A stretch of 64,000 nucleotides of DNA from the IMG/VR virus record IMGVR_UViG_3300025018_003789; one strand, 5' to 3'. A program made the translations under genes and the position numbers. The notes beneath the pieces are model-generated. The model searched no databases, was not told the DNA's origin, and worked only from the letters and a program-made list of their open reading frames with translations. Below, piece after piece: positions 1,631 to 63,900 of this stretch (position 1 is its first letter; each line of letters starts with the position of its first letter). This stretch comes from an uncultured virus (IMG/VR IMGVR_UViG_3300025018_003789). Its lineage: Duplodnaviria; Heunggongvirae; Uroviricota; Caudoviricetes.

Positions 1631-2746
1631 ATGTTATGGAAAGATGAAGAAATTCAATATTTAAGAGACAATTATAGTAAAGAAGAAAAAGATATTATTT
1701 GTAGAAATTTAAAACGTAATTGGCCAGCAATAATAAGAATGGCTAATTTACATGACTTAAAAAGACATGGAATATATAGTAAAGCAAAGATGGCATCAAA
1801 TCTTTTGTTAGAAACGCCTGAAGCGTATTATTGGGCTGGTTTTTTAATGGCTGATGCTCATATTTCAGAAAACCATATTGATTTAGCGATAAACACTTTA
1901 GATAAAGACCATCTTGAAAGTTATGCTGATTTCGTTGGTTATGTAAATAATTTAAAATTTAGAAAAACCAATAATGTATATCGTGTAGATTTTTCTGACC
2001 GTGGTATAGTTCCTTTGTTTAGAAAAAAATTTAATTTATCAAATAAAGGTGCAAAAACATATAATCCTCCTTCAATAAATATTAAAAATGATGATTTGTT
2101 TCTTGCATTTTTTTGTGGTTTTGTTGATGGCGATGGAAATATTCATCACAAAATTGACAATAAAAAAGGAGGAATCAGAGAATCTTGTAGTTTATTTATT
2201 CAATGTCATGGTAGTTGGAAAGATACTTTAGAATCTTGGTGCAAAAGAGTCTCTATGGTTTTAAAAAGAGAAGATTATATTAAAAAATGTAAAATAAGTA
2301 AAAGAAATCATGCTTATATCTACTTACAGGATATGAATTTTTTGATTTCTTTAAAAAATGAATTAATAAGAATTGAATTAGATACTATTTATTTAAAAAG
2401 AAAATGGGATAATATAGATTCAAATTATTCTAATAAACAATTTCGTTTGGCTGGCGAAAAAACAGAGAAGGTTTTATTAATGTTTAAAAATGGAGATACG
2501 AAACAAGATATAGCAAAAGAATTGGGAATTACAGAAATTCATGTTCGTCATATTTTAAAATCGAATGATATTAAATATGAACGTAGTAAATTTAAACAAA
2601 AAAAGTGGTCTGAGAAGGAAATCGACTTACTTAAAGAGAATTATGTAGGAAGTAAAGATAGAGAAATATGTGAATTGATTAATGATAGAAGTTATGAATC
2701 TATTGCAAAAAAAGCAAGTCAAATAGGATTGAGAAAATATGGATAA
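1631..2746 (+). CDS. LAGLIDADG homing endonuclease with Myb/HTH-like terminal repeats
   Basis: YWAGFLMADAH and FFCGFVDGDG motifs; WKDEEIQYLRDNY / WSEKEIDLLKENY repeats; AAGGAG RBS. Confidence 0.85.
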   Translation: MLWKDEEIQYLRDNYSKEEKDIICRNLKRNWPAIIRMANLHDLKRHGIYSKAKMASNLLLETPEAYYWAGFLMADAHISENHIDLAINTLDKDHLESYADFVGYVNNLKFRKTNNVYRVDFSDRGIVPLFRKKFNLSNKGAKTYNPPSINIKNDDLFLAFFCGFVDGDGNIHHKIDNKKGGIRESCSLFIQCHGSWKDTLESWCKRVSMVLKREDYIKKCKISKRNHAYIYLQDMNFLISLKNELIRIELDTIYLKRKWDNIDSNYSNKQFRLAGEKTEKVLLMFKNGDTKQDIAKELGITEIHVRHILKSNDIKYERSKFKQKKWSEKEIDLLKENYVGSKDREICELINDRSYESIAKKASQIGLRKYG

Positions 2747-3485
2747 TATAAGAATTCTGATACTCGCCCAACCGTTTTGTCCACTATTTGAGTTAGGGGA
2801 GCGTTTGGCTGATTTCCATAATATGGATTATTTTACAATTGAGCGTGATAACGATTACAAGAATATTGATTATTTCTCTGACAAGATTCCTGCTATTTAT
2901 TTAGATACAAATGATTTCATGACGGGTAGTGAGACTTCTCAGGGCCCACGTGATCCTATGTCCACGAGTAAGATGAAGGCATTGGACGAGATTTCTGTGC
3001 CTTCGCCTGAAGATCTTTTATCTGAGGACGAGCGTGTATCTTTAATGTCTCATGATAGGATGATAGTATCGAGTCAGGTATTGGACCCCTGGTTGGCTAC
3101 TGAGTGGGCTGATGTGGTGTTATATTTGAAGGTAAATGACAAGAAGGCTGCTGATTGGTTATCCAAGCGTCGTAAGTGTCCTTGTTGTGGTGCAGCGTAT
3201 CATTTAGAAGAGCGTCCAGTGAGTGCTGGGGACTTGTGTGATCGTTGTGGGACGACGATCATTATGTTAGAGAAGGATCGTCCAGAGAACGTTCGTAAGC
3301 AGTTCCAGGCGTGGAGAACTCAGGCTTACCGTATTGAGTTGTCATTTAGAGATTTGGGTAAGGATAAGTTTGCTACGATTGATGTAGATAAAGTGACGGG
3401 TTTTGATGAGATTGTAAAGTTAGCTGAGAGATTTTTAAAGAAGAAGATCAATCGTTCCCGTGTTGATTGGGGGTATAGTATATAA
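2739..3485 (+). CDS. Adenylate kinase-like protein (zinc LID domain, degenerate P-loop)
   Basis: RRKCPCCGAAYH...CDRCG..I...KDRPENVRK LID signature; N-terminal ILILAQPFCP where GxPGxGK is expected. Confidence 0.7.
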   Translation: MDNIRILILAQPFCPLFELGERLADFHNMDYFTIERDNDYKNIDYFSDKIPAIYLDTNDFMTGSETSQGPRDPMSTSKMKALDEISVPSPEDLLSEDERVSLMSHDRMIVSSQVLDPWLATEWADVVLYLKVNDKKAADWLSKRRKCPCCGAAYHLEERPVSAGDLCDRCGTTIIMLEKDRPENVRKQFQAWRTQAYRIELSFRDLGKDKFATIDVDKVTGFDEIVKLAERFLKKKINRSRVDWGYSI

Positions 3486-3967
3486 TGTATAATTTAGAAA
3501 AGAATAGTTTTATTAGTGTTGATCGTTTATGTTTCAAGGTAACATCTTGTTTTAATTTAAAGTTTGCTGATACTGATTTCCGTAAATACAAATTAGATCC
3601 AGTAGATGAATTAGAGATACCTGATGATTATGAGTATGGTAATTATTATGTAATTCAGAAGGGTGATACAGTTCTTCGTCCTAATTCTAAGAACAATACA
3701 TTTTATTTAGTGATTGCTATTTATAACAATAATGAAAATATAAATCGTTCATTTGTGGAAGTTCAAGAGTTGGACAATGGAAATCCTGTAGGTGAGACTT
3801 TAGAGATACCTCTTAGTCAGGCCAAGAATATGGAGTTTAGTAGTCTTGGTGAGTATATGAGGATTATTGAGGAAGAGAGAGTAAAGGAGGAGGCTTATCA
3901 GAGGCGTAAGACTGAGCAGCAGAAAAGGAATAAGGGAAAGTTTAAGAATCCGTTTTATTCTTTCTGA
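3485..3967 (+). CDS. Hypothetical protein
   Basis: 160-aa ORF, TAATG-coupled to upstream gene. Confidence 0.65.
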   Translation: MYNLEKNSFISVDRLCFKVTSCFNLKFADTDFRKYKLDPVDELEIPDDYEYGNYYVIQKGDTVLRPNSKNNTFYLVIAIYNNNENINRSFVEVQELDNGNPVGETLEIPLSQAKNMEFSSLGEYMRIIEEERVKEEAYQRRKTEQQKRNKGKFKNPFYSF

Positions 3968-56638: not shown

Positions 56639-57184
56639 TTTAGATTTAGATGGTTTTTTTGAAAAGAAAAAAGAAATTGAAGATAAGGAAAACTCGGGTT
56701 CTTTTAGACATCACACTTTAAATGAATCCACCAAAGTTGATTGGTTGACTCCACCAGAAATAATTAAAGACTTAGGTCCATTCGATACAGATCCCTGCAC
56801 TCCAATAGAAAGACCTTGGGACACTGCAAAAATACATTACAATATAACAAATAATGGACTTCTTCAGGAATGATCTGGAAGAGTTTGGATGAATCCACCT
56901 TACGGTAATCGAACAAAACAGTGGATGAAGAAAATGGCTGAACATGATAATGGAATAGCCTTAATCTTCGCAAGAACCGAAACAAGAATATTTTTTCCTT
57001 ACATTTGGGATTATGCTGATTCTATTTTTTTGTGAAGGGTCGTCTTAATTTCTATCACATAGATGGAACTAGAGGAGATGCCAATTCCGGTGCTCCTTCT
57101 GTTTTAATTGCATATGGTAAAGAAAATACAAAAAGACTAGAACAAATAAAATGTCTTGAGGGAAAGTTGGTTTATTTGAAATGA
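56628..57184 (+). pseudogene. Phage N6-adenine methyltransferase (Dam-like), with in-frame TGA and 1-nt frameshift
   Basis: WLTPP; FDTDPC; GLLQE*SGRVWMNPPYG; GIALIFARTET; frameshift in T-run ~57025 before KGRLNF...SGAPSVLIAYG. Confidence 0.8.
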
Positions 57185-57570
57185 TAACAAAACTTAGTAA
57201 TAAAATTCAATCTGATATAAGAGAATTTCTAGACGATATGGATTTCAAAGATATTGTAAATTCTGCTATCTTAGAAGAAGTTGAAATTAGAGACCCTAGT
57301 GATCAAAGATTTGTAGATAAGATTGTAGATGCAATTGCAGATAAAGTTGTTGAATCTTTAGATGCAGAAACTATTGCTGATCATATTTCAGATGAATTGA
57401 AAAAACATATTCTTCAGTATAATCCTACAATAGGGGTTGATGGAAATCTTGCTTGTAATTCTTGCTATAGAGAACATGGAAATTGGAAGACTTCGCAAGG
57501 TGGCCAATTAGAACATGCGAACCTGTGTAAAAATGGCGTAGCAATAATAGTGTTAGACGATCTAAATTAA
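57181..57570 (+). CDS. Hypothetical protein
   Basis: ATGA-coupled 129-aa ORF. Confidence 0.55.
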   Translation: MITKLSNKIQSDIREFLDDMDFKDIVNSAILEEVEIRDPSDQRFVDKIVDAIADKVVESLDAETIADHISDELKKHILQYNPTIGVDGNLACNSCYREHGNWKTSQGGQLEHANLCKNGVAIIVLDDLN

Positions 57571-57585
57571 AGGAGACCAATAGAA

Positions 57586-58405
57586 ATGGCTAAAAGATCA
57601 CCGTGAAATAATGGAGAATATGCAATTCTTCACGTAGCAATGTCTGAAATGGATGTTGGGGTGTTTTCAACAGTTGGCTGAAAATCTACAAAAAACTATA
57701 AATAATTACAAAATTCGATAACCAAGAATCAGTAATAATAAAAGTTTTTTATAGAAAAATAGAAAGAAGATACCGTAAGTTCTACGGAAATTAAAGTCTG
57801 TGGAGAGAATGTAAGTCAAATAATATCAATTTATTAATATTATTTGCTATCTTGATGAAGCAGAAAGTGAACAGAGAATCTTTTGTAGATTTTTGTAAGT
57901 TTCACAGAACGGTTATGTTGATGGGGATTATGAAGGTACAATTCGTAATTTCGGAAAGAACATAGCAACTATCGCAGAAAAAATCAACAGAACACCAAGA
58001 GCTATTTGTGATAAAATGGCAGAGCGTTATTCAGAAAGAGAAATTAGATCTTTCGAGAATGTTTATGAAGGTGAAGAATCAGCATCAGAGCGTGTCTTCA
58101 GCACTCTTCATCGTTCTGTAGAGCACAAGTTGTATAAGTTGTATCAAAGTAGCGAAGATAAGAGTTTGAATCGTGCCTTTTCGAAGAGAATTGATTCTAC
58201 TGTTTCTCCGATGAAAAACATTAATAGTTTCATCGAAAAGGAAGTTAACCGTAAGACCACAACTAAACTTCCAAAAGAAACTGTTTCTCAAATCAAGAGT
58301 TCGTGGGAAATTTCAAGAACACCAAAGATTTCTTCCGTAACTTCTCGTGTTTTAACTTCAGTTGCTCAACATTCAACCTCTCTAAGTGCATATAGAAAAA
58401 GATAA
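57586..58405 (+). pseudogene. Myb/HTH-like protein gene interrupted by a 253-bp element (also in-frame TGA at 57604)
   Basis: AAGGAG RBS; MAKRSP*NNGEYAILH..MDVG | YVDG...IATIAEKINRTPRAI...; removing 57660-57912 restores frame. Confidence 0.65.
57660..57912 (+). mobile_element. Non-autonomous miniature IS607-like element retaining the tnpB 3'/omegaRNA region
   Basis: Ends match those of 59390-60655 (CAGTT..AAAATCTACAAAAAACTA; TTTTGTAGATT..AACGG); internal ACCGTAAGTTCTACGG..CTGTGGAGA..GTAAG..GAAGCAG; GG at both junctions. Confidence 0.75.
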
Positions 58406-58431
58406 AATCTTTTTAAATTGCTATTGATGCG

Positions 58432-58461
58432 AAGGGAGCTATTTTATTATAGCTCCCTTTT
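58432..58461 (+). terminator. Intrinsic terminator
   Basis: AAGGGAGCTAT/ATAGCTCCCTT stem plus T-run. Confidence 0.75.
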
Positions 58462-58490
58462 GTTTAATTTGATGAATCGAGGTAAGGCAT

Positions 58491-59006
58491 TTGGATAAAA
58501 TCAAGTCTAATGGACAAAAAGAATTCAATAAAAAAAGATATGATAAACACAATTCTGAATCTAAAAGAAAATTCAAACTTCTTTCGGATCTATTAAGGAC
58601 GGAATACCGAGACTGCGAAGAAAATTTCAAGTATGATGGGTTGTGGAAGCCTAAAGACAAATTCATAAAAATAGAATTTGAAGATAGAAGAGAAAAGAAT
58701 TTTGATGGTCTGAGGGATGGAGATTATCCATACAGTAATGGATATAGTATTTTAGAGAGAAAACTTAAAGACGATAAAAATAAATCATCTCTTTTTGTTA
58801 TTACAAAACAAGGCTGTGATACTGAATTTGGTTTCATTAACTTTGCCCTCGCTAGAAAATTATACAAAGAACATAAACTAGAATCTGAAGCCTTTCAAGC
58901 CAGAGATACAGACAAGCCTGAGAAAAGATTCTTATTTCCAATTGATTTATGCACTTTCATAAAAGTAAACTTCAAAACAGGAAAGATAGTTAAGAATGGA
59001 AAGTAA
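58491..59006 (+). CDS. Putative PD-(D/E)xK nuclease-like protein
   Basis: GAGG RBS, TTG start; KYD......IEFE.R pattern. Confidence 0.45.
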   Translation: MDKIKSNGQKEFNKKRYDKHNSESKRKFKLLSDLLRTEYRDCEENFKYDGLWKPKDKFIKIEFEDRREKNFDGLRDGDYPYSNGYSILERKLKDDKNKSSLFVITKQGCDTEFGFINFALARKLYKEHKLESEAFQARDTDKPEKRFLFPIDLCTFIKVNFKTGKIVKNGK

Positions 59007-59307
59007 TGTTTTGGCCAAAACCCTTGACAAGGTTGAATTGCCGTTGCACTATTCCCCAGAGTTTGGACATTATACATATTATGAAAATGTCCTATACTAC
59101 TACAAGACAGGAAGAAAGTTGCCCAAAAAGGGAATTCGCTGTATGCGAGAAAACTGTCTTCCAAATAGAAAGAAAAAGGTTAAGAGAATTTCCGTCATCT
59201 TCGATGGGGAAAATCTTCTTTTAATAGATTCTGAAGTAAAGAATACAAGACTGACACGTGGTAAGTTTCGGGGCTTGTCGCATGAGGAGGTTTTAAATGG
59301 AGGTTGA
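58996..59307 (+). CDS. Hypothetical protein (start uncertain)
   Basis: 103-aa ORF overlapping a class II promoter. Confidence 0.4.
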   Translation: MESNVLAKTLDKVELPLHYSPEFGHYTYYENVLYYYKTGRKLPKKGIRCMRENCLPNRKKKVKRISVIFDGENLLLIDSEVKNTRLTRGKFRGLSHEEVLNGG

Positions 59308-59482
59308 TTATGAACTTGAAGTCGTCCTATATGCTTGTGCATCCATCAATCTTAGATGTGAGTCTTTAGAATATGAATTCCATCTAGGGTAATGACCGTT
59401 GACTAAAAATCTACAAAAAACTACAAAAAAGTGAAAAAATATGGAAGAAAAACAAAAGGTCAAAATCGTATAAGAATAAATT

Positions 59483-59617
59483 ATGAAAATAAAAGGTTAC
59501 AAAGTTGAACTGAAACTCAACAATAAGCAAAGAACTATGCTCCTGCAACATGCAGGAGCAGCCAGATTCACTTATAATTGGGGACTTTCAAAACGAATTG
59601 ACCTAAGAATTTTGTGA
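59483..59617 (+). pseudogene. tnpB: tnpB N-terminal fragment
   Basis: MKIKGYKVELKLNNKQRTMLLQHAGAARFTYNWGL = HTH_OrfB_IS605-type start. Confidence 0.85.
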
Positions 59618-59626
59618 ATAAATAAT

Positions 59627-60361
59627 ATGGGAAGACTTTGCAGTATGGAAAATAAAGTTTACATATATGGTCTAAAATGTCCCGAAAAAAGGATTATTAG
59701 ATATATTGGGAAAAGTAAGAAACCTAAATCAAGATATTCATCACATTTAAGTCACACAAAAGCAAAAAGGTATGATAATATTCATTTATACCGATGGATT
59801 GCGAAGCTTTTAAGAGATGACTTAAAACCCGAATTGATTATATTGGATAGTTGCAGTGATGAAGATTGGAAGAAAAAAGAAAAGGAATGGATTGCTAAAA
59901 TAGGATTGAAAAATTTGCTTAATATGAATGAGGGTGGTATTGAACCACCAGATAATACGGGTTTTAAATGGACTGATGAACAAAAAGCGAATCATCCATC
60001 ACATAAGAGAAAAGGCAAACCTCAATGGATCAATATTCCACATCCGATGACGGGAAAAATTGGGAAAGATAATCCTAATTATGGGCAAAAGCGTTCTAAA
60101 GAATTTTGTGAGTTAATGCGAAAACAAAGGTTAGAAAACAATGGAATGAAAGGCGTAAAGCTTTCAAAAGAGAGAGTCGAGCAGATAAAAAAACGTGTTA
60201 GAAAACCAGTAGCAATGATTGATGGTAATGGAAATATATTAAAAGAGTATAAATCACAAAAAGAAGCAACAATTGAATTGGGTTTAACTCAAGGTGCGGT
60301 GGCAAGAGTGTGTAGTGGAGAATATAAACAAACAAAAGGATATAAATTTAAATACTTATAA
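59627..60361 (+). CDS. GIY-YIG homing endonuclease with NUMOD-type DNA-binding repeats
   Basis: VYIYGL..P...IRYIGKS..P..R...H; E.EWI...LLN..EGG; GKDNPNYGQKRS; KEYKS..EA..LG....V..VC.G...KGYKFKY. Confidence 0.88.
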   Translation: MGRLCSMENKVYIYGLKCPEKRIIRYIGKSKKPKSRYSSHLSHTKAKRYDNIHLYRWIAKLLRDDLKPELIILDSCSDEDWKKKEKEWIAKIGLKNLLNMNEGGIEPPDNTGFKWTDEQKANHPSHKRKGKPQWINIPHPMTGKIGKDNPNYGQKRSKEFCELMRKQRLENNGMKGVKLSKERVEQIKKRVRKPVAMIDGNGNILKEYKSQKEATIELGLTQGAVARVCSGEYKQTKGYKFKYL

Positions 60362-60365
60362 AAAT

Positions 60366-60551
60366 TCCAGTAAGACCTGTTCTAATTGTGGTGCTATTAA
60401 AAGAGATTTGAGTTTAGGTGATCGTCAATATAATTGTGAGGTGTGTGACTTTAGCATTGACAGGGACGAGAATGCAGCTATAGTCTTGATGAAAGCCGCA
60501 AGTTCTGCGGTGTTAGCCTGTGGAGATATTGTAAGCCCTCAAAGCGCTTAG
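60366..60551 (+). pseudogene. tnpB: tnpB C-terminal fragment (zinc ribbon, RuvC-III)
   Basis: SSKTCSNCG...LSL.DR.Y.C..C...DRD.NAA....ACG. Confidence 0.88.
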
Positions 60552-60988
60552 TGCGCTTTGCGGCTGTATCGTTGAAGCAGGAATTAGATTGAGAATTTGG
60601 TGTTATCCGAAGGATTGAACTTCGTTACCAGATTTTTGTAGATTCTAAGGAACGGTATGGCGTGCTAGAAGACATGTATGATAAATTAAGAGTTCGAGAA
60701 GACGTTGAAACACTGACCCTCTCTTTTCCAGAAAGATTTTTAAACATAACAGAGAGAAGAATTCTACTAAAAAAAATAAGTCATTTTTGTCCAAATGTAA
60801 AAAAAGTAACAATTAAAACTCACTGCCCGATGGTAGTTCAGCAATGTCCAAATGGTTCAGTGTCGGTTTTCAATCAAGGTCCGAAAGATTCTGGAGATAT
60901 CCATAAAAGGCACTATCCCACAGAAGAACAACTTAATTATTTTGACGTAAAAAAACTAAATGTAATTTAAAAGAAAAGAGAAAGTCAA

Positions 60989-63900
60989 ATGGAACAGGTT
61001 ACCGACAAAGTTTACCGCTGGGGTGATCACGATGAGACTGCTATTCAGCAAATCATGAAGTGTACTTATGATGGACGTGCTGTTGCAGGTGCATTGATGG
61101 CTGATGGTCACATGGGCTATTCTATGCCTATCGGAGGCGTTGTAGGTTACAAGAACCTTGTATCTCCTTCTGGCGTTGGATTCGATATCGCATGTATTGC
61201 TGAAGGGACAGAAATAACTACTGGTTCTGGAGAGATTATAAAGATTGAAGACATTACAAAAGACCATAAGGGTCTTACGATGAAACTGTCTGGTTCTCTT
61301 GTAGAAACCAATATTACCGGAATTAAAAGCAAAGAAGTTGAAGAGATTTTGGAAATAGAATTAGAAAATGGAGATGTTTTACGTTTGACAGAAGACCATC
61401 TTCTCCTTACTCAAGAACATGGATGTGAGTCTTGGTGGGAGGCAGGGAAGTTATCAATAGGAGACAAAATAATTGTGTCCCCTTATAAAGGAGTGCAAGG
61501 GGCTTCTACAAAACACCCTGTTTTCATGAGGCTTCTTGGGTATCTGATGGGAGACGGCCACCTTCCATCAAATGGTTGTAGATCGTCCTTCTATTCTTCC
61601 ATAGATGAAGATGCTGATTTAATTAAAAAAGACATAGAAATATATTCTGATTATATTCATCAACAATTCGAAATCCAAAAATCTCAATCTGCAAATCCAG
61701 AATCTATCTCATCAATTGACCCCGTTAACGTTAGAATTTTCCGAAGAGACAGAAAAACTATTACCGGAAAAGATACAAGGGAAAATTGTGTTTATTTTTC
61801 ATCGGAGTGGATCAGAAGGGAATTTGAACTTTATGGATGTCCTTCTGGAAAGAAAAATTTTGATATATCAAGACTTCATGAAGTCTTTTCTGATCTTTCA
61901 TTAGTAGATAAGGCCAATTTTATTAATGGACTTTTGGGAGCAGAAGCAGGTTGCCCAAAAATTGGGAAAAATAATGTCTTCAATCCTTGGATTAAGATGG
62001 GCGGTATAAATGGGAAAGATTTATTGGAATTTATTTCTTCTCTACTCGATGAATTTGGCTTTGAATCGCACATTACTCTTTCTACAGAAGAAGAGGATGG
62101 GAAAGGGGCTACATATGTTCTCCAAATCGTTGGAGGAATGGACGAATTTGAAAGGTTTTACAGAACCTTTAAGTTTTTCTATTCTGGTTACAAGGAAATA
62201 GAAAAGGCAAAAGTTCTTTCTTATATTTGGAACAAAAAACAAATAATTAATAAGAAAATCGCCGCCAGAGAACTTTGCAGGGTTCTTAGATCGCAAGGTC
62301 ATAAAGTTCATTTTTTACATGAAGAAGCCTCTCGAATTCTTGGGTACGAAGTCAATAAACGTTTTGCCCTTAGATCAATTTACGAAGATTGTGATTCTCC
62401 AAGAATCAGCACAGAACAGCCCGTTATCGATACTATTAATGAATGTGTTTTTGTCAAAATTGTATCAATAAATAAAATTAAAGAAAAAACTAAAGTCTAT
62501 GACATTGGTATTGCTCACGAAGATCATAATTTTATTGCTAATGGAATTATTGTGCATAACTGCGGAAATAAAGCAGTTCGTTTAAATGTCAAAGGTAAAG
62601 ACATCAAAAAAGACATCAAAAAAGACATTAAAAAAATTATGGATCAAGTCTTCAAGACCATTTCTTTTGGTGTTGGACGAAACAATAACGAAAAGGTTGA
62701 GCACTCTCTCTTTGAAGATGAAACATGGAAGTTGCCATGCATTAAAGAAATTGCTCGTGGTAAAAATCCTATTGCATTGAAAGATTTAGCCGCTAACCAA
62801 TTAGGAACTGTTGGCTCTGGGAATCACTACGTCGATTTATTTGTAGACGAAAATGATGATGTTTGGATTGGTGTCCACTTTGGTTCTCGTGGATTGGGTC
62901 ACAAAACGGCAACATATTTTTTAAATAAAGCCGGAGGAAAAGATGATATAAATGCTTATCCCACTTTAATTGAGGCTGATAGTGAATTAGGCATCGATTA
63001 TATTGCTTGTATGAATTTGGCTGGACGATATGCATATGCTGGTAGAGACTGGGTTTGTGATCGTGTGGCTAAAATTCTTCATGCAAAAATTGTAGAAGAA
63101 ATCCATAACCATCATAATTTTTGCATTCCTGCGACAGAAAAAATTCCAACTCCTTTGGGATGGAAAACAATTGATAAATTAGAAATAGGTGAAACAGTTT
63201 ATGGCTTCGATAAAGATTTTGGTTTGTATGAAACAAAAATAAAAAACAAATGGAATAATGGAAAAAAAGAAATCTATACAATAGGAACCAAAAATAGAAA
63301 AATAAGATGTTCTGGTGATCATCCTATATTAGTTATAGAAATTCAAGAAAAACCACATCCAGAAAGAAAATGGCATAAAAAAAATACTGGAAATTATTTA
63401 TGGAAAAAAGCAAGTGAATTAAAAATTAAAGATATAGTTGTATGCGCTGAAAGTTACTATCCTAGTTCGGAGTTAAATGATTTTGGTTTACATAAAGCTA
63501 GACTTTTGGGAGCTTTTATTGGAGATGGTTGGGTTCGACAAGATCCCACTATAAGTGGATATTCTATTGGATTGGCTATTGGTGGTAAGGAAGAAAAGGT
63601 AACAGAAGAATACTTAAATATTCTTAAAAAAGTATTTCCTGAAGCCGATTGGAAAAATAATAAAAAGGTGCTTTTGGGCTAACGGCATCATGTAAATTTA
63701 TATATGAAAAGCTAAAAAAATGGAATATTCATCAAAAATCAAAAAAAAGAAGATTCCCAAGTTATGTTTTCAATTTAAGCCATGAAGAAAAAATACATTT
63801 TTTATCTGGATATGTTGATGCTGATGGGCACGTCCATAAGGAAGATGGCAAAAAAAATCATGGAAGAACTAAAATTTGCTCTACAAACAAATTGCTTGTA

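Follow-up and report, generated by a model that had tools for sequence, protein, structure and literature searches.

The tnpB gene is the ancestor of Cas12, and TnpB nucleases are usually viewed as selfish proteins that protect their own transposon. Homing endonucleases of the I-TevI type bind at their insertion site and cut about two turns upstream, and miniature, MITE-like derivatives of the IS200/IS605 type go by the name of PATE. The subject here is an IS607-type element at positions 59390..60655 of a 64,000-nucleotide stretch (the window) from an uncultured virus of the Caudoviricetes (IMG/VR record IMGVR_UViG_3300025018_003789), in which a GIY-YIG homing endonuclease gene stands where most of tnpB would be. 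Insertion after GG and imperfect, AT-rich inverted repeats characterise IS607 elements and group B IStrons (PMC4227781), and in the IStrons of C. botulinum a TGGG motif is predicted next to the transposon (bioRxiv 10.1101/2023.11.20.567912). Intronless homing is described in PMC13565253, and homing endonuclease genes adjoin an Arc clade of IS605 elements, no explanation being given in the passages concerned (bioRxiv 10.64898/2026.09.24.754181). No account of homing endonucleases that reside as a family inside tnpB came out of a literature search with subscription journals and preprint supplements outside its reach.

Probably, an IS607 TnpB-only element inserted after GGG and its tnpB was then invaded by a GIY-YIG gene that homes to the DNA of the zinc ribbon. 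The homing site would be the conserved DNA in which the zinc ribbon of TnpB begins, with the codons for (P)SSKxCSxCG, and it is the anatomy of the element, the recurrence of the same junction elsewhere, the discordant relationships of the two joined parts and the intact catalytic motifs of the enzyme that point this way.

Anatomy of the chimeric element

The element is made up as follows.

59390..60655, plus strand: whole chimeric IS607-type element, 1266 nucleotides (nt), delimited by host-gene colinearity, the sibling locus L056 and contig branching at 60656/60657
59390..59482, plus strand: left end, non-coding, 93 nt, with an inverted-repeat arm at 59403-59422; the flank ends in GGG, and the left-end core is found again in a mini-element at 57668
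59483..59617, plus strand: 5' remnant of tnpB, 44 codons (HTH_OrfB_IS605), with TnpB homology through codon 42 (nt 59605)
59613..60362, plus strand: homing-endonuclease cassette, 750 nt, a 32-nt leader and the GIY-YIG open reading frame (ORF)
59627..60361, plus strand: GIY-YIG endonuclease ORF, 244 amino acids (aa), with GIY-YIG and I-HmuI_NUMOD-like Pfam matches; the family start at 59645 gives 238 aa
60366..60551, plus strand: 3' remnant of tnpB, zinc ribbon and RuvC-III motif to the native stop (Cas12f1-like_TNB)
60495..60655, plus strand: omegaRNA scaffold region with a RAGATH-18-like core at 60517-60583, its 5' limit taken from the content of the mini-element
60630..60655, plus strand: right end, with an inverted-repeat arm at 60630-60649 and the terminus ...GGAACGG

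With the intact 380-aa TnpB P0002 as query, tblastn finds residues 1-42 at 59483-59605 (85.7% identity) and residues 320-380 at 60366-60548 (82% identity), and only the cassette lies between them. The 44-aa ORF of the tnpB start (59483-59617) matches Pfam HTH_OrfB_IS605 at an E value of 5e-14 and the frame of the tail (60366-60548, stop at 60551) matches Cas12f1-like_TNB at 2.6e-11; the tail is 80-87% identical to P0001-P0003, two of which (P0002 and P0003, 80-82%) are intact 380-aa TnpBs. About 277 tnpB codons are missing, including the OrfB_IS605 core (P0002 residues 171-282), and the 750-nt cassette is there instead, so that RuvC-I and RuvC-II are gone and the RuvC-I/II/III catalytic domain is incomplete. 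The tail follows the GIY-YIG ORF by four bases in a different frame, and its sole start is a GTG 66 nt inside the GIY-YIG gene. As a query the tail found no viral relatives, and blastn against phage GenBank records matched only a 98-nt stretch of the tail, with ISCaje3 of a Campylobacter phage.

A sibling in the metagenome, L056, keeps the tnpB core (P0002 residues 287-380, 87% identity). Its DNA homology with the window begins at 60366, 4 nt past the GIY-YIG stop codon, and stops at ...GGAACGG(TA), 60655-60657, after which the flanks differ, and this alignment therefore fixes both the right edge of the cassette and the right end of the transposon. The cassette edges are further marked by DNA homology from 59613 (L159), from 59645 (L160) and to 60362 (L001), and the exact element boundary can slide within a shared GGTA. 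L056 also holds a second, distant TnpB (39% to P0002) at 2635-3717, 2.3 kb downstream of the sibling element, and its right flank, read by eye, resembles the start of a thymidylate-kinase-type P-loop gene. A preliminary description of the window, made from its letters, had proposed a gutted TnpB with a GIY-YIG gene in its place and with the ends and the omegaRNA region kept; residues 1-42 and 320-380 of P0002 are indeed all that remains, and the parts it listed within 59390..60655 are all present, in the order given and at coordinates exact or within a few bases.

The element is not an assembly chimera. Contigs of four aquifer-metagenome runs (X1-X4) were compared with 57000-61500; such contigs drop rare variants, X1 is possibly the source sample, and a single campaign may have yielded all four runs. 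The left end, the junction of the tnpB start with the GIY-YIG gene and the junction of that gene with the tail are all crossed with 0 mismatches. In X1 this is done by contigs at 57885-59527 and 59498-60656 (the latter with the tnpB start, GIY-YIG gene, tail and right end) at a depth of ~16-17, and in the low-depth contigs of X2-X4 the left end is crossed by 59343-59494 and 59208-59425, the first of the two junctions by 59468-59825 and the second by 60199-60468. Contig breaks coincide with repeats, and at 60656/60657 other contigs exit into other flanks, one of them that of L056; the intact sibling thus co-occurs with the chimera, an X1 contig running from the right end into the L056 flank. 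The chimeric assembly that the preliminary description had allowed for was not found, the junctions being spanned without mismatch in all four runs.

Recurrence of the gene at tnpB tails

Every close relative with DNA context has a tnpB tail joined to the GIY-YIG gene, the junction lying no more than a few codons from (P)SSKxC. The type-1 scans gave 33 locus rows, and the scan for a second type of catalytic head (type 2) gave 80 loci. Where the match runs through the DNA-binding domain at 37% identity or more, a tail adjoins in six of six contigs (L136, L137, L159, L160, L001, which is also L138, and L139); none of nine distant full-length matches (26-29% identity) and none of 17 matches to the N-terminal domain only has one. 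Four of the loci are laid out thus.

L136: endonuclease gene 33-737, tnpB tail 740-913
L137: endonuclease gene 3001-3705, tnpB tail from 3708 onward
L159: endonuclease gene 3001-3708, tnpB tail from 3711 onward
L160: endonuclease gene 551-1264, tnpB tail from 1264 onward

The junction reads NSSKTC in the window, RSSKTC in L136, NSPKTC in L159, KTC in L160, EPSSKMC in L165 and L166 and ASSKLC in P0046, the only exception being P0033, in which it lies deeper. Among the type-2 loci the tail directly follows the gene in L165 and in L166 (also L167), L163 is the L139 contig and L164, a copy of L165 at 94% identity, has lost the tail but kept the RNA/right-end part; 75 of the 80 have no TnpB match. 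In-frame fusions of a GIY-YIG protein with a TnpB tail make up two of 50 homologues and seven of the 120 matches listed in a second search. As a control, metagenome tnpB-tail loci were inspected and none of 80 has a GIY-YIG gene, so the association of this gene with the tail is not general to tnpB neighbourhoods. In all, the same junction is met in more than ten distinct loci or proteins, and the arrangement is not the one-off that the preliminary description had feared. A consistent programmed frameshift into the tail was rejected as a candidate, the frame offsets differing between loci.

L159 is without a left end and the tail of L160 stops before any omegaRNA. L164 and L165 share 94% identity over 820 nt and have unrelated flanks; their left boundary lies at the hairpin CCCACG..CGTGGG and a matching right hairpin ends in GTCAG, a TCAG terminus being reported for IS605-type IStrons (PMC4227781). 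Two or more sites thus hold this IS605-type chimera complete with its two ends, as would fit its transposing in one piece. The earlier suggestion that the endonuclease gene parasitises TnpB and travels as transposon cargo is supported, the cargo part by this pair. Fragments of Y1 tnpA adjoin L137, L157 and L160, and mark these as IS605-type lineages.

Several of these loci have further features. On the 2.3-kb contig L160 (1-2254) selfish genes are crowded together: a Y1 tnpA that is cut short, an RHH gene of 45 aa that runs into the start of the GIY-YIG gene, that gene and the truncated tnpB tail, together with a 189-aa ORF that is HNH-like by eye (no Pfam HNH match) and the end of a second tnpB. 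Of a D12-class adenine methyltransferase (Pfam E value 9.4e-10) L159 retains, just upstream of the cassette, only 49 aa from the N-terminus (2672-2821). At 2263-3105 of L157/L158 a Y1 tnpA (128 aa) stands beside a decayed 36-codon stump of the same endonuclease family, which looks like a late stage in the life cycle of the invader. L193 (223-2516) has a complete TnpB and, 630 nt later, a GIY-YIG gene of the second head type, an arrangement that may be a coincidence or may show an endonuclease gene stationed next to its target.

Histories of endonuclease and tail

Identities of the two joined parts were compared pair by pair.

L166 and P0123: endonuclease 98% (231/236), tail 49% (35/72)
P0132 and P0136: endonuclease 93%, tail 58%
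L166 and P0132: endonuclease 53%, tail 83%
Window and L159: endonuclease 75%, tail 46%
Window and L160: endonuclease 75%, tail 43%

By these figures the histories of endonuclease and tail are uncoupled in both directions, and co-divergence of the two was rejected, the identity pairs being discordant. Between L166 and P0123 the tails agree over their first eight codons and differ from there on. The L166 tail is identical in 72 of 73 positions to residues 316-388 of the intact 388-aa TnpB P0154, 38 of the 120 matches listed are TnpBs that match only the L166-type tail at 78-100% identity, and the window tail is 85% identical to that of intact L056, by all of which the tails are copies of local intact tnpB genes. 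The endonuclease genes of L136 and L137 are alike but for 1 of 705 nt, but their tails open with a 22-nt patch that has nine differences and in which L137 is like L159; the patch seems to be a recombination scar at the junction. Together this is the pattern left by repeated, site-specific entry into different tnpB lineages and by recombination at the junction, and uncoupled histories of this kind are what a homing endonuclease with tnpB itself as its target would produce. In the L166-tail lineage there is also a TnpB of 219 aa, P0155, in which an internal deletion fuses the N-terminal third to the last ~100 residues, so core loss also arises without an endonuclease gene.

The endonuclease

The GIY-YIG Pfam match scores 26.9 bits (cut-off 22.6), the I-HmuI_NUMOD-like match has an E value of 2.8e-9 and NUMOD3 is matched weakly. 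The family start is the second ATG (59645, 238 aa), and the leader upstream of it is common to L159 and is mirrored in upstream peptide extensions of several database proteins. The endonuclease has 50 homologues (E<=1e-3), ~30 of them at 55-85% identity, and against phage GenBank records the protein gives distant matches only. In an alignment of 27 sequences Y8, Y20, G22, R30, H34, E79 and N93 are invariant, and all are present in the window protein, with presumed counterparts in the residue numbering of I-TevI. An AlphaFold model (AF2) has a pLDDT of 78.8, and with Foldseek its catalytic domain aligns with I-TevI (1ln0) at a TM score of 0.78 (on target) and a root-mean-square deviation of 2.6 Å, and its DNA-binding region with I-HmuI (1u3e) at an E value of 3e-5, the corresponding PDB sequence match having an E value of 4.7e-7. 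The predicted architecture is an I-TevI-like catalytic head, a NUMOD linker and an I-HmuI-like helix-turn-helix tail, and with its catalytic positions intact and its folds matching those of I-TevI and I-HmuI the enzyme looks active.

Catalytic heads are swapped on a common DNA-binding domain (P0046, L001, L139, L165 and L166), and in P0046 the first 17 residues are of the window-type head and the second head type follows.

Transposon family and insertion site

The terminal inverted repeat (59403-59422 and 60630-60649) is 20 nt long, 85% complementary, imperfect and AT-rich, and the left flank ends in GGG at the main element, in GGGG at the mini-element and in GGG at L064. The latter is a relative in which a Resolvase (Pfam, E value 1.4e-18) lies directly upstream of a TnpB that is 52% identical to P0002, and which ends in ...GGAACGG; serine recombinases lie upstream of TnpB in many other tail-related loci. 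An IS607-like element lacking its serine recombinase had been called from the letters, and both points hold: the repeats, the GGG flank and relatives such as L064, with a serine recombinase and the same terminus, agree with the family, and the window contains no serine recombinase (tblastn with the TnpA of L064, E<=10) or Y1 transposase, so that the element is a non-autonomous IS607 derivative.

The element interrupts a phage gene of which two parts are left.

59297..59389, plus strand: 5' fragment, 31 codons, aligning to the N-termini of intact 130-150-aa homologues
60656..60970, plus strand: 3' fragment, with an ORF at 60662-60970, in colinear alignment with intact homologues

The start at 59297 overlaps the stop of the upstream ORF. 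The 3' fragment ORF has 69 homologues (E<=1e-3), which it matches mostly from their residue ~30-42, and in the alignment the N-terminal residues that it lacks are supplied by the 31-aa left fragment, the right fragment taking over from the very next column. The insertion is thus precise and in frame (1266 nt = 3 x 422), in a small conserved phage gene, which we take to be disrupted and not spliced because no group I intron was detected; a group I intron reading was rejected for want of an Rfam match. The first ~16-20 nt of 60656..60970 would be the omegaRNA guide. No other viral contig matched the host-gene fragment, which leaves no empty-site locus at the DNA level, and the phage has no close relative among phage GenBank records.

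A large ORF adjoins the element (60989-63682 and beyond) and, on a reading of the translation only, has at least two intein-like inserts with endonuclease-like motifs. From its motifs it is presumably an RtcB RNA ligase, and the inserts are another sign of a phage region rich in selfish elements.

The omegaRNA region and a miniature sibling

One copy of the CCTGTGGAG..GAAGCAGGAA pattern is present in the window, and 100 shuffles gave none. RAGATH-18 (RF03064) matches 60517-60583 over its full length (1-71) with 26.6 bits against a gathering score of 44.9 and an E value of 0.062 in a 4-kb search; a search of the whole window at E<=5 did not report it, Rfam at E<=1 gave nothing in L001 or L056 and the exact 22-nt omegaRNA string has 0 matches in viral contigs. 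A copy of the left-end core at 57668 led to a smaller element.

57662..57912, plus strand: ORF-less mini-element (left end, omegaRNA and right end), aligning with the main element and L056

Its left limit is placed by analogy (after GGGG) and its right end, 57912, is set by a branching contig. The omegaRNA/right-end part has a depth of 107-149 in X1 against ~16 for the phage (~7-9-fold), so the element family is multi-copy in that community. The three omegaRNA regions (main element, mini-element and L056) fold to a consensus of 46 pairs, 11 of which are changed on both sides and still pair, a count taken from three sequences only. From what the mini-element retains, the omegaRNA can do without any sequence upstream of ~60495. 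Within the omegaRNA/right-end region, 22 nt (60602-60623) that lengthen a predicted stem are absent from L056 and from the mini-element.

Proposed origin of the chimera

From the comparisons above we infer a cleavage specificity, a repair route and a present mobility for this family. By analogy with I-TevI-type enzymes, the C-terminal domain would dock on the zinc-ribbon codons in an intact tnpB and the head tethered to it would cut nearby, and the break would be repaired from a copy already holding the endonuclease gene. The tail would provide repair homology on one side, and the left end and tnpB start would provide it on the other if donor and recipient are of the same IS family. The endonuclease gene would end up directly 5' of the tail with the core replaced by the cassette, and loss of the RuvC-I/II core would leave TnpB dead. 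Entry into a new IS family would proceed by an illegitimate left joint, which would explain the differing left junctions. Since both ends and the omegaRNA are kept, a transposase in trans could still move the element, and the endonuclease gene would then spread in two ways, by homing into further copies of tnpB and as the cargo of a transposon. What the endonuclease gene keeps as its partner is the first ~50 codons of the tnpB tail and not the ends or the omegaRNA. On balance we lean towards the wider view that this GIY-YIG family is a dedicated hyperparasite of tnpB, which disarms the TnpB of IS605 and IS607 elements and rides on their ends, with some lineages extending into the tail.

A number of points weigh against homing into the zinc-ribbon DNA of tnpB. 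Simple homing predicts alleles in which the tnpB core is retained upstream of the endonuclease gene, and tblastn with P0002 found no tnpB core directly upstream of any GIY-YIG gene. To account for the loss of the core one must further assume gap repair from a donor without a core or else illegitimate joining, because the left junction differs in every locus: it is tnpB codon 42 in the window, a Dam methylase fragment in L159, an RHH gene with Y1 tnpA in L160 and a hairpin in L164/L165. In L001 and L139, which pair the second catalytic head type with the same DNA-binding domain, the tail is inverted and lies just upstream, and this is not predicted by one-step homing. The frequent in-frame fusions among type-2 relatives could mean that the tail is used by the protein. 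In the contigs of the four runs, which drop rare variants, there is no conversion intermediate, and none skips the element, so that the search for an empty-site allele suggested in the preliminary description ended without one; the chimeric body has a depth of 16.8 in X1 against 16 for the phage, no sign of copy spread. The target itself is read wholly from comparative anatomy.

If homing into tnpB is the right explanation, tnpB is entered again and again at one conserved spot, and destroyed, by another selfish nuclease that is itself guided by protein, adding a layer to the conflict between mobile elements in which a parasite has a parasite of its own. It suggests a process that inactivates tnpB and makes transposase-less derivatives, and may explain the homing endonuclease genes beside the Arc genes of IS605 elements. 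It also predicts a natural protein that recognises a ~20-40-bp sequence common to many tnpB genes, which would be of use in detecting or removing these elements and in modelling the colonisation of multi-copy targets by homing endonucleases.

Other explanations

A functional nuclease swap, in which the GIY-YIG enzyme cuts empty donor sites or otherwise secures retention, possibly with the retained omegaRNA, is improbable. It would suit the retained ends and omegaRNA, with their compensatory changes relative to the mini-element and L056 (three sequences), the L164/L165 chimeras with both ends in two unrelated sites, the position of the L160 GIY-YIG gene exactly in the slot of tnpB behind an RHH gene and the homing endonuclease genes that adjoin IS605 arc genes (bioRxiv 10.64898/2026.09.24.754181). 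A protein-specified endonuclease, however, cannot follow new insertion sites (argued in PMC13565253, section 6.3), and the same source holds classical homing endonucleases to be poorly suited to restoring a transposon after its excision, which speaks against a takeover of the homing role of TnpB. The partner seen to be conserved is the zinc-ribbon codons, with L159 lacking the left end, the L160 tail lacking omegaRNA and L164 having lost the tail; the omegaRNA of the mini-element needs nothing upstream of ~60495; and uncoupled histories fit invasion and not a stable partnership. On the identity of the partner, which is the tail codons and not the ends or omegaRNA, and on the uncoupled histories, the takeover proposed in the preliminary description is not retained. 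Nor is it likely that the zinc-ribbon tail has been exapted as a working part of the endonuclease, be it an extra DNA-binding module or a coupled small protein. Nine in-frame fusions are at hand (L166, P0033, P0046, P0123, P0131, P0132, P0133, P0136 and P0138), some fusion clusters have 11-30 members, and in L136 and L159 the ATG of the tail ORF overlaps the GIY-YIG stop codon; but the share of fusions is biased, these having been found via the Pfam tail domain, and the frame relation varies, the window having an offset unlike that of L136, L159 and L160 and a tail that is out of frame with only the internal GTG, 66 nt inside the GIY-YIG gene, for a start. L165 and L166 differ by one base, which creates a stop, the tail is truncated in L160 and deleted in L164, and tails 99-100% identical to intact TnpBs speak for recent capture and not for a co-evolved domain.

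An intron-type insertion, that is an IStron or a group I intron with a GIY-YIG gene that is spliced from the phage mRNA and harmless, is very unlikely. Group I splice sites have a U ending the 5' exon and a G ending the insert, and no register of the element offers the two together. The precise in-frame insertion (1266 nt = 3 x 422) would favour such an intron, as would the existence of IS607-family IStrons, including those of phages (PMC4227781; bioRxiv 10.1101/2023.11.20.567912), and the annotation of endonuclease relatives as 'group I intron endonuclease' by a source, but there is no Rfam group I intron match at E<=1 in 58000-62000 or at E<=5 in the whole window, and from the left end to the tnpB start there are 93 nt, whereas a ribozyme core needs 200-500 nt (PMC4227781). 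That the locus is chance debris, with an unrelated endonuclease gene in a decaying tnpB, or else an assembly artefact, is hardly credible: the single copy in the window and the phage-level depth of the chimeric body would agree with it, but it is contradicted by the same junction in more than ten distinct loci or proteins, by contigs spanning the junctions in four runs with 0 mismatches and also by the uncoupled histories of endonuclease and tail. Homing into tnpB, with the points against it given above, remains the explanation we prefer.

Comparison with known systems

The endonuclease is most readily compared with the free-standing GIY-YIG homing endonucleases (I-TevI and the Seg proteins of T4), with which it has in common an I-TevI-like head tethered to a separate DNA-binding domain, a compact free-standing phage cassette and mosaic patches beside the gene that resemble co-conversion. 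It differs from them in that the target would be a transposon nuclease gene and not a conserved phage or host gene, in its I-HmuI-type DNA-binding tail and in that the alleles here have lost most of the target gene and are not simple insertions.

As a transposon, the window element shares with the IS607 TnpB/omegaRNA elements (IS607, the CboIStron lineage and ISXfa1) the inverted repeats, insertion at GG(G) and an omegaRNA over the tnpB 3' end, and it has relatives with a serine recombinase and TnpB; unlike them it is without tnpA, has a TnpB cut to 42 + 61 residues and carries the gene of a protein-guided endonuclease. The mini-element (57662-57912), which keeps only ends and omegaRNA, resembles the miniature IS200/IS605-type derivatives, and so does the chimera in being without a transposase, so that it would need one in trans, but the chimera has a new, intact gene. 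The Arc (RHH)-containing IS605 elements are matched by L160, where Y1 tnpA and the 45-aa RHH gene are followed by the GIY-YIG gene in the place of tnpB, and L160, with its tnpB tail, is a case of an arc-adjacent homing endonuclease gene; the window element differs in being without an RHH gene. The IStrons, chimeras of a group I intron with IS605 or IS607 (PMC4227781; bioRxiv 10.1101/2023.11.20.567912), are likewise two fused selfish elements lodged inside genes, phage genes included, and involve the same IS families. In contrast to the IStrons, the partner here is a homing endonuclease gene and not a ribozyme, and TnpB is destroyed by the fusion where in the IStron it coexists with its partner.

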